64,000 nucleotides of DNA from Escherichia phage P479, in the sequence record MW269952.1. The stretch is one strand, 5' to 3'. This document shows, piece by piece, positions 50,244 through 61,330 of this stretch (position 1 is the first letter of the stretch; the number at the start of each line of letters is the position of its first letter). Made by a program: the position numbers and the translations under genes. The notes under the pieces were generated by a model. That model ran no database searches, was not told the origin of the DNA, and saw only the letters and a list, made by a program, of their open reading frames with translations.

Positions 50244-50284
50244 TGTACAAATGAGTGTAGGTGCAGTATTATGTTCCTACACCA
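50244..50284 (+). promoter_or_regulatory. early promoter plus stem-loop element (GTGTAC, 17-nt spacer, TATTAT; inverted repeat GTAGG/CCTAC)
   Basis: -35/-10-like hexamers with the -10 embedded in an inverted repeat; upstream of the first IP-like gene. Confidence 0.4.
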
Positions 50285-50303
50285 ACGAACAAACGGAGTT
50301 AAT

Positions 50304-50636
50304 ATGAACATCAAAACTTACAACGAGTTTTTAGCCGAATCCGCCATCAATGAGACCAAATCAATTGATGATAGTGAAGGCTCTCTGAAATTTGGTTTAA
50401 CCAAAAATGCAGATGGTGTTTTCTTTCAGATTGGTAATGAACGTTTTCAAACGTCCAAATATTCCAAAGCTGCAGTTGAAGCTGTCCTGAAATCTGGTGG
50501 CAAGTGGAAAGGCAAAGAAGGTACTAAAGAAATTGGTATCGCTGTTGACGGTGGTATGGCTTATTTTAAAATTGGCGATGAACAATTTATTATGTCTGCT
50601 CGCGGACGTAAAGAACTGGCAAAACTTTATAAATAA
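50304..50636 (+). CDS. internal-protein-like gene with capsid targeting sequence (MNIKTYNEFLAE)
   Basis: N-terminal K-T-Y-x-E-F-L-x-E resembles the T4 IPI/IPII/IPIII capsid targeting sequence; occupies the T4 ipI slot after 57B; ACGGAG Shine-Dalgarno. Confidence 0.6.
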   Translation: MNIKTYNEFLAESAINETKSIDDSEGSLKFGLTKNADGVFFQIGNERFQTSKYSKAAVEAVLKSGGKWKGKEGTKEIGIAVDGGMAYFKIGDEQFIMSARGRKELAKLYK

Positions 50637-50644
50637 GGTTTCTT

Positions 50645-50917
50645 ATGAAAACTTTCAATGAATTTTTCAACGAGTCCCAACTGAACGAAGAAGTAAAAAT
50701 TAGTAAAGCAGTCAAAGCTATGATTGACAATATCAATCACCTGTATAGCATTGACTTAACTGACCATATAACAATTGGCAACAAACGCAACTTTTTCGCG
50801 TTTGACATTTCAGAACTTGACCAGAACCAAATTAATAACATTGAGCGATTTGCCAATGACAAGGGTCTCCGTCATGAGACAGCTGGTTATAAAAAATATG
50901 CAATTTATCTAAAATAG
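50645..50917 (+). CDS. internal-protein-like gene with capsid targeting sequence (MKTFNEFFNE)
   Basis: CTS-like N-terminus; 90 aa; tandem with neighbours. Confidence 0.6.
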   Translation: MKTFNEFFNESQLNEEVKISKAVKAMIDNINHLYSIDLTDHITIGNKRNFFAFDISELDQNQINNIERFANDKGLRHETAGYKKYAIYLK

Positions 50918-50925
50918 GATTTCAA

Positions 50926-51225
50926 ATGCAAACTTTTCATGAATTTTTGGTAGAAAACAATTACCTGGCAGAAGCAAAAACCTGGCCTCTGGGTCTTCAG
51001 AAGAAAAACACCTACAAATGGGTTGACTTCAAAGGTAAAGGCGACGCTGAAGACTTTGACCAGCTACGCAAAAATGGTTATACCTTCCTTGACTCCAACT
51101 ATAACAAAATTACCTCTTTTAGTCAGAAGTCAAGCATTGCCTTCATTGAAACTGGTAAGAACTCTCCTAAAGATATTTCTGACGACTTCGCCGCTTATGG
51201 TGTAATTCGTGGTTCAAAAATGTAA
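50926..51225 (+). CDS. internal-protein-like gene with capsid targeting sequence (MQTFHEFLVE)
   Basis: CTS-like N-terminus; 99 aa. Confidence 0.55.
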   Translation: MQTFHEFLVENNYLAEAKTWPLGLQKKNTYKWVDFKGKGDAEDFDQLRKNGYTFLDSNYNKITSFSQKSSIAFIETGKNSPKDISDDFAAYGVIRGSKM

Positions 51226-51233
51226 AAATGTAA

Positions 51234-51280
51234 TGTACACGATGGGATAGTTGCAGTATAATTATCCCATCAACTACTGG
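51234..51280 (+). promoter_or_regulatory. early promoter plus stem-loop element (TGTACA, spacer, TATAAT inside GGGATA/TATCCC inverted repeat)
   Basis: Nearly identical copy at 51567-51612 and related copy at 54961-55010. Confidence 0.45.
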
Positions 51281-51288
51281 AGCTACTA

Positions 51289-51567
51289 ATGAAAACTTAT
51301 CAAGAATTTATTAACGAATCAATTAATCACCCGGATATGCTGGAAGACCTGAAAGGACATCTGATGGTTAAGGCCCGACCGGTTGATGGTGGCGCATTTG
51401 AGTTGTTTCTTGTTAAAGGCGAAAACGGTCCTGATAACAAGAAAGTTTCAGCAATGATGTTGACTAAAGGTTACAAAGTCAGTTCTTCCTGGAATGCTCC
51501 ATTCACTTACGCGGTAAGCCCTCGTGAACTGAAAAAAGTTAAAGCTGGACAATATACAAAAATTTAG
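51289..51567 (+). CDS. internal-protein-like gene with capsid targeting sequence (MKTYQEFINE)
   Basis: Textbook CTS-like N-terminus MKTYQEF; 92 aa. Confidence 0.65.
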   Translation: MKTYQEFINESINHPDMLEDLKGHLMVKARPVDGGAFELFLVKGENGPDNKKVSAMMLTKGYKVSSSWNAPFTYAVSPRELKKVKAGQYTKI

Positions 51568-51612
51568 TGTACGTGATGGGATAGTTGCAGTATGATTATC
51601 CCATCAACTACT
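51567..51612 (+). promoter_or_regulatory. early promoter plus stem-loop element (copy of 51234 element)
   Basis: GTGTACGTGATGGGATAGTTGCAGTATGATTATCCCATCAACTACTG, differs from the 51234 copy at a few positions. Confidence 0.45.
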
Positions 51613-59286: not shown

Positions 59287-59507
59287 AATTAAAGAAACGA
59301 TATATTCGTAAAATAAATGGTCTTCGCGATTACGCCAAAGGTTGGCCGTTAAGTATTATTATGGCTGATAGACATCCACGTTACAATACCGAGTTGACTT
59401 ATTACAAAAAGTATGATTCATACTGTCGGTCTAAAGCGGGTCGTTTAGATGGTTCCTATGAAGAATATTTCGGTAAAAAACCTACTCGTATTTCGTTAGG
59501 AAAATAA
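59280..59507 (+). CDS. hypothetical basic protein
   Basis: 75-aa ORF overlapping the previous stop. Confidence 0.4.
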   Translation: MLKLKKRYIRKINGLRDYAKGWPLSIIMADRHPRYNTELTYYKKYDSYCRSKAGRLDGSYEEYFGKKPTRISLGK

Positions 59508-59538
59508 TTTAATCACAAGGATGTGATAGGAGGACTTT

Positions 59539-59868
59539 GTGCATAAAGATTCAGTATTCAAATATCTTTTGAAAACAGATAAAGAATTCTATATGAATGG
59601 GCAAGCTTTCTTGTTCGTTCGCGGTAAACGTGAGATGTTTTACAAATGCGACCTCTCAATGCATCATCATATGTATCATACCCACGGTGAGTTTATACTG
59701 GGGTTCTCTGGTGACGAAACCAGACATATAGCTATGTACTACGACCATTTTAAGCTCAATGATTGCGGTGACAACGCTCTGGTCTGGAATCCATCTTGGC
59801 GTCGTTGGGATAAGGTAGACAACGATAAATTATTTTTAGAATATTGTAGAAGCAGTATACAAGTCTAA
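59539..59868 (+). CDS. hypothetical His/Cys-rich protein (probable GTG start)
   Basis: 109-aa ORF beginning at GTG 59539 with TAGGAGGA upstream; motifs CDLSMHHHMYHTHGE and C..C. Confidence 0.4.
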   Translation: MHKDSVFKYLLKTDKEFYMNGQAFLFVRGKREMFYKCDLSMHHHMYHTHGEFILGFSGDETRHIAMYYDHFKLNDCGDNALVWNPSWRRWDKVDNDKLFLEYCRSSIQV

Positions 59869-59932
59869 AAAACTGTGTTACTATACTCCTATCAACTGAT
59901 GACAATCACGTTATCAGAACAGGAGAATAAAA

Positions 59933-60133
59933 ATGTCTATCGCAAACGAATTAATCAAAGTTCTGAACGAAGCCAAAGTCAACCAACTGGAGGTTAATCT
60001 CCAGGAAGTTTCTGATGGCATTAAAGTAACCATCAGTGGTGATTACGCAGGCGCCACAGAACGTGTTTGTGATTCTCTGGAAGAAGTAGTTTCCTGCATT
60101 AAAAGAGATATTTACGCATACGGTATTATTTGA
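59933..60133 (+). CDS. hypothetical small protein
   Basis: 66-aa ORF with AGGAGAATAAAA upstream. Confidence 0.4.
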   Translation: MSIANELIKVLNEAKVNQLEVNLQEVSDGIKVTISGDYAGATERVCDSLEEVVSCIKRDIYAYGII

Positions 60134-60143
60134 GGAAAATATT

Positions 60144-60311
60144 ATGTATAATGTTCTTATTGTTTTTGTCACTCACCCGCAAGGTGGAGTAAGACAGAAT
60201 ACTTCTCAAGTGGTTCAATTTTCTTCACTAGAGGCCGCCAATCTTGCTGCCTCACGAATTGAAGCGAAAAAATCGGCACTTGGAAAATATGAAGTAACTC
60301 GTCTTTACTAA
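60144..60311 (+). CDS. hypothetical small protein (55 aa)
   Basis: Short ORF preceded by TGAGGAAAATATTATG; below the ORF track cutoff. Confidence 0.3.
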   Translation: MYNVLIVFVTHPQGGVRQNTSQVVQFSSLEAANLAASRIEAKKSALGKYEVTRLY

Positions 60312-60324
60312 TGAGGAAAATATT

Positions 60325-61284
60325 ATGATGTTAGTTATTGGTTCTCGTGCATTACATAACGCTGGTCTGATTGAAAGTCAGAAAATTGAAAACTCTGATT
60401 GGGACTTTATCGCTGACCAGGGTTCCTGGAACAGCTTTAAAACCCAGATGATGGGGCAGCATGTGCATGTGGATAACCCAGATGTTCAAGCTTTTAAATG
60501 TATGCACAATGGTAAAGAAACCTATTTTGAAGCGTACATCGTCCGCGCACTGACAAGTGTTCGTGAGTTGACTGATGAGCTACAAGAGGAAGATTTTACA
60601 TCCAGTTATCGTCTGCTCAAATATGCGAAGGCAAATATTCAGAAAGACCGTCTATCTGGTTTTTACTGGGCGACTCCTGATATTTGTCTGGCAATTAAAT
60701 TGTCTCATCGTTACCTGAAGAACAATCCATTCTTCCTGAAGACCATGAGTCATATTAATTACCTTCGCAATAAGGGTGTTGTTCTTAATGATGAACTGCA
60801 GAAAATCATGCTGCAGCGCCAGGCAGAAACACTGTCATATAGTCACCCTAAACTAGACGTGGGTAAGAAAACTTTCTTTAATGATACAATCTATACCCTT
60901 GACCATGACTCCATCCACGAGGCTGTGGCGCTTGCTGATAAGCCTGCATATAAGTTCTATATGAAGGATGATTCAGAAGTCATGACCTCACGTGAAAAAT
61001 TTGAAGCACTCCCTGATGTTATTAAACTGGCAGGGGTTTATGAAGAAGCATGTGTGCTCGCTCTGGAGCGTTCGCAGGTTCCTAATGAGTTCAATATCTC
61101 TCCATCCGTGAGCTTCCATATTGCGCTGGAAAAAGTCTGCACCTCCATTACTTCTGGATGGTTCCGTGAGTATGCATGGGAACATTATCAGGACGTGGTT
61201 AATATGTATAACACACTGGGTCATGAAGACTATGTTAAACGTTTTAAGGCTAACCAACATTTAATTCGTCCTTTCGAAAAATAA
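60325..61284 (+). CDS. hypothetical 319-aa protein (N-terminal GS...D.D pattern weakly reminiscent of a nucleotidyltransferase fold)
   Basis: Largest ORF in the hyperplastic region; preceded by the conserved initiation region; family not recognised. Confidence 0.45.
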   Translation: MMLVIGSRALHNAGLIESQKIENSDWDFIADQGSWNSFKTQMMGQHVHVDNPDVQAFKCMHNGKETYFEAYIVRALTSVRELTDELQEEDFTSSYRLLKYAKANIQKDRLSGFYWATPDICLAIKLSHRYLKNNPFFLKTMSHINYLRNKGVVLNDELQKIMLQRQAETLSYSHPKLDVGKKTFFNDTIYTLDHDSIHEAVALADKPAYKFYMKDDSEVMTSREKFEALPDVIKLAGVYEEACVLALERSQVPNEFNISPSVSFHIALEKVCTSITSGWFREYAWEHYQDVVNMYNTLGHEDYVKRFKANQHLIRPFEK

Positions 61285-61286
61285 TT

Positions 61287-61330
61287 GTGTACATCCAAGT
61301 GGGACTATGACACAATGGTCCCACAATCAA
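61287..61330 (+). promoter_or_regulatory. early promoter plus stem-loop element (GTGTACATCCAA...; inverted repeat GTGGGAC/GTCCCAC)
   Basis: Shares GTGTACATCCAA with the 54444 element. Confidence 0.4.

Follow-up and report, generated by a model that had tools for sequence, protein, structure and literature searches.

The promoter early stem-loop elements (PeSLs) of RB49 and phi1 are repeated intergenic cassettes composed of an A/T-rich tract, a sigma-70-type promoter, a stem-loop and a Shine-Dalgarno (SD) sequence with its ATG, and the stem-loop lies 'most commonly' in the stretch separating the -35 box from the -10 box or overlaps the -10 box (Arbiol 2010, PMC2839356). These cassettes are concentrated in hyperplastic regions next to indels, they showed promoter and terminator activity in reporter assays, and sequenced mini-circles were joined within them (Arbiol 2010, PMC2839356). 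PeSLs have been extended to PST/T4, with the promoter pattern TTTACW-N17-TAYWAT, and to nt-1/KVP40, and degraded 'half' PeSLs have been described (Comeau 2014, PMC4122927). According to the account of Repoila 1994 given in Arbiol 2010 (PMC2839356), analogous elements with T4 early promoters and weaker, AT-richer stems are present at the internal-protein (IP) loci of T-even phages. In this study, we analysed a stretch of 64,000 nt from Escherichia phage P479 (MW269952.1; hereafter the window), in which an initial annotation had noticed a recurring promoter-plus-stem-loop element and had compared it to the PeSL architecture.

Our analysis bears out this comparison. The early hexamers, the A/T tract, the stem-loop in or next to the promoter, the SD-ATG, the hyperplastic location and the association with indels are all found in P479, and this full set of sequence-level features supports the PeSL identification. 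We can say with good confidence that the P479 elements are likely to be PeSL-type composite regulatory cassettes of a Gaprivervirus-like T4-type phage, while we are far less sure of what the hairpin specifically does. Our literature search found no paper analysing these elements in Gaprivervirus, and it gave nothing usable on promoter analyses of Gaprivervirus/VR7.

Early-type promoter units of P479

Ten T4-early-type promoters, described by the pattern GT[G/T/A]TAC, a spacer of 17-18 nt and TAnnnT, were found on the + strand, nine of them within 50.2-61.3 kb and one at 15.6 kb (Table 1). All the copies listed in the initial annotation are present on this strand, at coordinates that differ by 0-1 nt. 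Its description of the -35 box as GTTTAC or GTGTAC holds for six of these copies, the deviants being ATGTAC at 51233 and TTTTAC at 54962, and the spacer, given there as about 17 nt, measures 17-18 nt. The identical module reported in three copies is indeed exact (ATAATGATTCCATACTGAGTTA at 15621, 54469 and 55514); a copy with two mismatches lies at 54986, and shuffled sequences gave none. The three exact copies precede the unrelated open reading frames (ORFs) phrog_6003, phrog_9997 and phrog_7474, one of which is 39 kb away. When we allowed GTATAC as a -35 box, the copy at 55513, which had been taken for a module only, was completed to a full promoter with its -35 at 55489, and a tenth copy that had been missed was found at 59855.

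With the strict promoter pattern, we obtained 8 matches on the + strand of 49.5-64 kb, compared with 0.52 +/- 0.69 in dinucleotide shuffles, and 0 matches on the - strand of the same interval. One of the eight, at 59638, lies within an ORF and is probably a chance match. A generic sigma-70 scan showed no enrichment (50 sites versus 41.5 +/- 6.6), indicating that only the T4-type -35 is informative. The late-promoter motif TATAAATA gave 19 matches versus 5.25 expected, nearly all located 5' of - strand structural genes, and this opposite distribution supports, as far as sequence goes, placing the elements in the early class. The identities of middle (MotA-box) and late promoters were rejected, as their motifs differ from those of the elements. 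T4 early promoters have been characterized as strong UP/-35/TGn/-10 promoters (Hinton 2010). Based on the sigma-70-type -35 and -10 boxes, the UP-like A-tract and the location on the early strand, the elements are predicted members of the T4 early promoter class.

The genomic setting was examined using megablast, which placed the region in the genus Gaprivervirus (Straboviridae, Tevenvirinae). TH41 and CJ20 are the nearest relatives, with ~95-96% identity and 94-95% coverage of 49.5-64 kb, and no record identical to the region was found by megablast. The - strand carries the structural genes from gene 24 (start at 15556) to gene 53 in 1-45.6 kb, and the + strand carries genes 4, 2, 3, 1, 57A and 57B from 45.6 kb. 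Located 3' of 57B are IP genes, tRNA-Met, tRNA-Arg and many small ORFs, and then nudE and e. The gene order 4-2-3-1-57A-57B-ip-tRNA-e is the order of the T4 hyperplastic region. As judged by this gene content, the elements lie in the classical 57B-ip-tRNA-e hyperplastic region of T4-type phages, along the putative early-transcribed strand. The early-type copies number 9 in the 11 kb of the ip-tRNA-e region versus 1 in the 49.5 kb of structural and core genes. The accessory genes in such a region include injected internal proteins that counter host defences.

The units pack into 60-140 nt between two small genes. In 8 of the 9 copies that follow an ORF, the -35 box begins 0-13 nt past the upstream stop codon, which is overlapped twice; in the copy at 54444 it lies 60 nt past the stop codon, with a terminator in between. 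The 20 nt upstream of the -35 box are 70-90% A+T in 9 of 10 copies (55% at 50243), and their A fraction is 0.35-0.60 in 9 of 10 copies compared with a regional mean of 0.31. Since the -35 box is so close to the upstream stop codon, this A-rich tract is partly coding. A TGn extended -10 is present at 56301 and 61287 only. Transcription usually starts 7 nt past the -10 box in sigma-70 and T4 early promoters, and in the nine leaders measured the ATG lies 20-44 nt beyond the start predicted in this way. A GGAG-type SD sequence (GGAG or GAGG) precedes the start codon in 9 of 10 copies, the copy at 54962 having none.

The copy in the late-gene block lies at a locus that is conserved in 29 phage records. 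The late motif of gene 24 (TATAAATA, 15582-15589, -) is only 6 nt from the early-type -35 box of this copy (+), back to back, and the segment 15582-15601 forms a predicted compact divergent early/late promoter pair within the head-gene block. The same motif is also found at 50628-50635, a short distance upstream of the gene for the ip9-like internal head protein (50645-50917). Besides being reached by read-through from the early unit at 50243, this gene could therefore have late expression.

Stem-loops at the -10 box and turnover of their arms

A perfect stem of 7-10 bp lies over the -10 box in 6 of the 10 copies (50243, 51233, 51567, 54962, 56301 and 61287), and the loops of these six stems, which are 6-14 nt long, contain all or most of the -10 box. 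The initial annotation had placed the -10 box of every copy inside an inverted repeat; this is correct for six of its eight copies, and the module copies at 54444 and 15596 show no significant structure (z values of +0.8 and -0.4). The per-site null probability of a stem of at least 7 bp over the -10 box was 0.02 when the spacer and downstream sequence were shuffled, and 0.027 at random genomic positions. Six stems in ten copies thus correspond to P of ~7e-8, or ~3e-5 when only the four different stems are counted. The six hairpins fold at -13.4 to -17.3 kcal/mol, with z values of -2.8 to -4.7. Both the promoter-pattern shuffles and the stem null were exceeded, and a chance origin was rejected. 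When all ten copies are considered, six have the stem-loop over the -10 box, one has it over the -35 box (55484-55503), one is preceded by a terminator ~35 nt upstream (54385), and two (15596 and 59855) have none. The 3' ends of the six hairpins lie -1 to +4 nt from the predicted transcription start, indicating that each hairpin would be absent from the mRNA of its own unit and would form only in read-through RNA or in DNA.

We then compiled the stem arms of the promoter-like sites in the window and 16 related loci (116 unique 62-mers). A single consensus structure was unusable for covariation, the 5' arm having registers of i+j = 43, 46 or 54, and the distinct arms were listed instead. At least 10 different arm sequences and registers occur at the same position in the window, the 16 relatives, T4, JS98 and IMG/VR contigs. 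They include the pairs GATGGGATA/TATCCCATC, GGGAACAT/ATGTTCCC and GTGGGACCAT/ATGGTCCCAC, the pair GATAGGGT/ACCCTATC upstream of denV, and the pair GTGTAGG/CCTACAC, which is shifted to GTAGGTGCA/TGCACCTAC in TH44. The arm pairs of JS98 are GAGGACA/TGTCCTC and TGATAGAA/TTCTATCA. In T4, stems of 10, 7, 8 and 14 bp lie over the -10 box upstream of ipI, trna.4, ipIII and ipII, respectively. T4 Ptrna.4 and the 51567 copy have the leader and the gene start in common, while their arms are ATAGGGT/ACCCTAT and TGATGGGATA/TATCCCATCA, respectively. A pattern search of IMG/VR returned 16 loci, mostly from the same Gaprivervirus genomes together with a few unrelated contigs; these unrelated contigs have the same -35/-10/leader frame and pair the spacer with the leader, for example as CTCCGTAGTTG/CAACTACGGAG. 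The stem structure is therefore kept while the arm sequence turns over, which argues against a site for a sequence-specific protein. Internal stem mismatches were 11 G:T versus 1 A:C, not all of which are independent. When we compared the two strands, the sense RNA folded better than the antisense RNA in 52 of 64 unique elements (81%), by a mean of 2.4 kcal/mol.

Two cases in relatives concern the gain or loss of a stem. In SP18 (locus L012, 12769-12830) and PSD2001 (locus L009, ~13135), the spacer TCAGTATGGA is now complementary to the module leader TCCATACTGA, and the two form a new hairpin of 10-14 bp round the -10 box of a module-type promoter that is hairpin-less in the window. In ECML359 (locus L003, 4228-4262) and TH44 (locus L004, 4226-4262), the slot of the 51233 copy (51226-51288) is occupied by GGGGATAATTATCCCC followed by TTTTT. 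Judged by its letters, the latter is the same stem as GGGATAA...TTATCCC minus the -10 loop, and a canonical terminator. Set against GGGATAA[ctgcagtataa]TTATCCC, the GGGGATAATTATCCCC with T-run that sister phages have in this slot looks as if promoter and terminator had been interconverted when the loop was lost or gained.

Breakpoints and junction repeats in related phages

Sixteen related loci, 15 from Gaprivervirus and one from JS98, were aligned with 49-64 kb, and colinear BLAST segments were joined into chains. When gaps of at least 40 nt were taken as breakpoints, 202 were found in total, and 189 of them (94%) fall in gene-junction footprints, which make up 22% of the region. The initial annotation had taken the ORFs for independently acquired early-gene cassettes and had suggested a comparison with related genomes to see whether they come and go as units bounded by the elements. 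In this comparison, gains, losses and replacements affect one or two ORFs each, and all 9 element junctions carry breakpoints; however, 17 of the 26 element-free junctions do so as well (Fisher p = 0.044). These results indicate that the elements are frequent but not exclusive exchange points.

Homology boundaries were also found within the elements, at 54986, 55508, 56314, 61287-61295 and 51600-51615, and several crossovers lie where the -35 box gives way to the spacer, at the edge of the stem and at the -10 box. In the window, the promoter before the ORF at 55033 and its leader is TTTTAC/GGGATA; in PSD2001 and VR20 a different -35 and spacer precede them, with identity from the -10 box on. 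In PSD2001, identity stops at GTGTACATC of the 61287 copy and resumes at the ribosome-binding-site (RBS) linker described below, and an extra ORF of 225 nt with its own module-type hairpin lies in between. CJ20 has only the ~25-nt module in common with the 55489 copy, and in TH41 identity reaches past the 51567 leader and stops there, a different ORF being next. The island 51225-51318, which comprises promoter, hairpin, SD sequence and ten leader codons, is kept at ~87% identity in seven relatives, and the ORF bodies on both sides of it are non-homologous in those seven. Extra ORF-plus-element units of 278-612 nt are inserted at 51225 in ECML359, pEC-M719 and TH44.

A segment of 448 nt (55866-56313), which consists of an intercistronic hairpin, an RBS linker, the ORF 55899-56297 and a -35 half, is missing from 9-11 relatives, in which identity picks up again precisely at the 5' arm of the 56301 hairpin. 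The left edge of this segment, which most relatives lack, is the intercistronic hairpin GGGGCGAAAGCCCC (55868-55884). This promoter-less hairpin has a GAAA tetraloop, follows directly on the stop codon of the ORF 55560-55865 and precedes the RBS linker.

At element-free junctions, breakpoints make use of terminator T-tracts, of the leader codons of IP ORFs and of the RBS linker TGAGGAAAATATTATG. This linker, which carries no promoter, constitutes a second class of junction repeat, and breakpoints fall on it at 55885, 60131, 60307-60312 and 61331. The leader codons MKT(Y/F)xEF, with which each of the four tandem IP-type ORFs opens, make up a third class (five copies), with breakpoints at 50939-50955 and 51318-51320. 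Among other linkers, repeats of 35-46 nt are found at 58.5-59 kb, and the T-tracts of two terminators bound an ORF of 588 nt (53829-54383).

Table 1. Promoter units and repeat features of the P479 window; units are named after the first nucleotide of the -35 box.
Feature	Coordinates (strand)	-35 box	-10 box	Stem-loop	z	Downstream features and remarks
50243, 3' of 57B	50243..50303 (+)	GTGTAC, 50243-50248, overlaps 57B stop	TATTAT, 50267-50272	GTGTAGG(14-nt loop)CCTACAC, 50255-50282	-4.05	GGAG 50295; ATG 50304 of IP-like ORF; JS98 breakpoint at 50241
51233	51233..51288 (+)	ATGTAC	TATAAT, 51257-51262	GATGGGATA(13-nt loop)TATCCCATC, 51241-51271	-4.72	ATG 51289; 63-nt repeat with 51567 copy, 87% identity
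51567	51567..51624 (+)	GTGTAC, overlaps upstream stop	TATGAT, 51591-51596	TGATGGGATA(13-nt loop)TATCCCATCA, 51574-51606	-4.50	ATG 51625 of trna.4 homologue
54444	54385..54523 (+)	GTGTAC, 54444	CATAAT, 54468-54473	none over -10; canonical terminator AGCCCGCATTGCGGGCT + T-run upstream, 54385-54410	+0.8	module ATAATGATTCCATACTGAGTTA 54469-54490; ATG 54524; breakpoints 54381/54397
54962	54962..55032 (+)	TTTTAC, 17-nt spacer	TATAAT, 54985-54990	TGGGATA(9-nt loop)TATCCCA, 54975-54997	-4.16	leader CCATACTGAGTTACC; ATG 55033
55489	55484..55559 (+)	GTATAC, 55489, in loop	CATAAT, 55513-55518	AGGGGGTATACAAGCCCCCT, GGGGG/CCCCC, 55484-55503	-2.53	module 55514-55535; ATG 55560
56301	56301..56372 (+)	GTTTAC	TAGTAT, 56325-56330	GGGAACAT(6-nt loop)ATGTTCCC, 56315-56336	-2.83	ATG 56373 of e.6 homologue
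59855	59855..59932 (+)	GTATAC, 59855, 18-nt spacer holding upstream stop codon	TACTAT, 59879-59884	none over -10		leader ACTCCTATCAAC; ATG 59933; orthologous to JS98 promoter-like site
61287	61287..61343 (+)	GTGTAC	CACAAT, 61311-61316	GTGGGAC(T)AT(6-nt loop)AT(G)GTCCCAC, 61299-61324, 10 pairs counting one U.G	-3.95	RBS linker ATGAGGAAAATATTATG; ATG 61344; breakpoints 61277-61295 and 61331 in 6 relatives
15596, lone copy in late-gene block	15596..15666 (+)	GTTTAC	CATAAT, 15620-15625	none	-0.4	module 15621-15642; ATG 15667 of 93-aa ORF, phrog_6003
RBS linker TGAGGAAAATATTATG	55885..55901 (+)					more copies at 60130, 60311 and 61330 (four in total)
Four tandem IP-type ORFs	50304..51320 (+)					starts 50304, 50645, 50926 and 51289

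We also observed features of the neighbouring genes. The tandem ORFs 54524-54949 (phrog_9997) and 55033-55476 (phrog_18416) are paralogous, with a common C-terminal domain and an identical stretch of 31 nt (54908-54938 = 55432-55462), and each has its own promoter unit. The Rfam scan gave no match at the elements and returned only the two tRNAs, and Rfam has no family for rnaC or rnaD. Homologues of these stable RNAs of T4 are found at 53472-53738, within a 353-nt 'non-coding' stretch 3' of the tRNAs. The homologue of rnaD (species 2) is partial, with residues 1-55 at 94.5% and residues 93-119 at 89% identity, and that of rnaC (species 1; 53600-53738) is 98.6% identical over all 139 nt, far above the ~80% typical for P479 versus T4-type relatives. 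The segment 53594-53740 is swapped for 505-605 nt in most Gaprivervirus relatives, which includes a 127-aa ORF where annotated. These observations suggest that the rnaC segment may have been acquired recently from a T4-like phage.

Proposed function, alternatives and known systems

We propose that host RNA polymerase would fire at each unit early in infection, and that each small gene would be expressed independently from its own early promoter. In read-through RNA, the hairpin would most likely be an attenuator or a structure that protects the 3' end of the upstream cistron, perhaps after cleavage at GGAG sites. GGAG sites are typical targets of RegB in T4, and among the relatives VR20 and JS98 have an annotated regB. 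Whole units and their sub-modules (the -35 half, the stem with the -10 box, and the leader) recur at 75-100% identity. These repeated sub-modules could provide short homology patches for the phage homologous recombination system, at which ORFs would be inserted, deleted or exchanged without breaking expression, a role that they would have in common with the other junction repeats.

Here, we need to consider several points that weigh against this proposal. Four of the ten copies (54444, 15596, 55489 and 59855) have no hairpin over the -10 box. A U-tract is missing downstream of all six hairpins and none was flagged by the terminator scan, and the four stems that we inspected directly have at most 3 T in the 8 nt beyond the stem. 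Intrinsic termination by the six hairpins is doubtful, and canonical terminators were rejected for them for lack of the U-tract. Rho-independent terminators likewise have a stable hairpin 10-35 nt past the stop codon, but they differ in their U-tract, while the P479 hairpins have loops of 6-14 nt and no U-tract. As to folding, the regional baseline is also sense-biased (64% of random segments, 1.2 kcal/mol) and the excess of the elements over it is modest, so that the folding asymmetry argues only weakly for a role at the RNA level. The enrichment of breakpoints at element junctions is weak (9 of 9 versus 17 of 26, p = 0.044) and is not significant when breakpoints in at least two relatives are required (7 of 9 versus 14 of 26, p = 0.19), and the breakpoints come from relatives that are non-independent and were measured against the window only. 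Finally, the predicted promoter activity, its timing and the +1 positions rest on the consensus and on orthology to T4.

The breakpoint pattern might also arise if the elements were ordinary early promoters with no causal role in shuffling, only crossovers between genes surviving and promoters happening to be there. We take this to be possible, although we do not favour it. It agrees with the concentration of breakpoints at gene junctions of any kind (94%), with the 17 of 26 element-free junctions that carry them, with the marginal enrichment under both counts (p = 0.044 and 0.19), and with the many indels of 58.8-60.3 kb that are bounded by junction repeats of 13-35 nt, RBS linkers and T-tracts without a promoter. 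It does not account as well for the several homology boundaries that fall inside elements, between sub-modules, or for the identical module before unrelated ORFs, one of them 39 kb off, and the recombinant mini-circles of Arbiol 2010 (PMC2839356) have their junctions in PeSLs.

Other explanations concern the hairpin itself. The inverted repeat might be a site at which the early promoter is controlled or shut off at the DNA level, by a dimeric regulator bound to a palindromic operator or by extrusion of a cruciform. Two observations would suit this: the repeat overlaps both the -10 box and the discriminator, so that protein binding or extrusion there would prevent or change the formation of the open complex, and the hairpin is absent from the promoter's own transcript. 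However, the arms are wholly different between copies and orthologues at the kept position (GGGATA, GGGAACAT, GTGGGAC, GTGTAGG, GATAGGGT, and TGATGAGGTA and AATTGTGA of T4), which does not fit a sequence-specific protein, and a sequence-specific operator was rejected for lack of arm conservation. According to textbook energetics, extrusion of a cruciform is disfavoured by loops of 6-14 nt, and the excess of G:T over A:C mismatches points to the sense RNA, so a DNA-level site appears very unlikely to us. The hairpins could also be functionless by-products of templated (quasi-palindrome or snap-back) mutation that perfects chance inverted repeats during T4-type replication, T4 being the classical textbook system of quasi-palindrome templated mutation. 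The stepwise perfection of arms among orthologues, as in the 3' arm at 50243 (GTT to GCT to GCA), and the complementarity of the SP18/PSD2001 spacer TCAGTATGGA to the module TCCATACTGA are what such mutation would produce. We nevertheless consider a purely mutational origin quite improbable, as the position is constrained, with the stem always over the -10 box and ending at the start site, orthologous promoters of T4, JS98 and Gaprivervirus again show the structure although their arms have turned over completely, and the stem frequency is ~25-fold over that of random genomic positions. The stem-loop may even be an active structure-dependent hotspot instead of a passive patch of homology, whose arms would be continually rebuilt by templated (snap-back) repair, which would stall or break replication and seed crossovers at its edges, and whose promoter and terminator states would interconvert. 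This is unlikely, but if it were true, PeSLs would be self-propagating regulatory elements.

If the P479 elements are PeSL-type cassettes, as we prefer to read them, Gaprivervirus would be a fourth T4-type lineage with promoter/stem-loop cassettes at the exchange points of small accessory genes, with Dhakavirus and T4 for comparison. The PeSL model becomes more sober in this light, with cassettes that show mosaicism below the level of the element and often serve as crossover sites, as one of several kinds of junction repeat. This kind of element was already published (1994, 2010), and the finding in P479 is correct but ordinary and opens no new question, while its elements offer defined sites for testing what a hairpin with the -10 box in its loop does.

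In comparison with the PeSLs of RB49 and phi1, the P479 elements are alike in the parts of the repeated intergenic cassette, the position of the stem, the hyperplastic location, the adjoining indels and small-ORF replacements, and the crossovers inside the cassette. They differ in that the RB49/phi1 promoters are near-perfect TTGACA-N17-TATAAT with polyG/polyC stems, whereas P479 has the T4-early -35 GT(G/T)TAC and stems of mixed sequence. For RB49/phi1 there is experimental proof of mini-circles and of activity as promoter and terminator, while the P479 elements are known from sequence. The PST/T4 consensus TTTACW-N17-TAYWAT fits the P479 copies and the preference for hyperplastic regions is alike. 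Degraded or chimeric units near indels occur in the systems of Comeau 2014 (PMC4122927), and the P479 copies 55489 and 59855 are comparable to these. The PST figure places the stem-loops just upstream of the promoter, whereas in P479 and in the T4 ip promoters of our own scan the stem lies over the -10 box. As far as the account of the T-even IP loci in Arbiol 2010 (PMC2839356) goes, those loci resemble P479 in the 57B-ip-tRNA and e-ip-denV positions, the T4-type early promoters, the stems without polyG/polyC tracts, and the inclusion in the linker of the conserved leader codons of the IP genes; P479 differs from them in belonging to another genus (Gaprivervirus), with other arms and another set of IP and ORFan genes. 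Based on these comparisons, the P479 elements are analogous to the RB49 PeSLs without being their sequence homologues; of the T4 elements they are analogues, and at the ip, trna.4 and denV positions orthologues.

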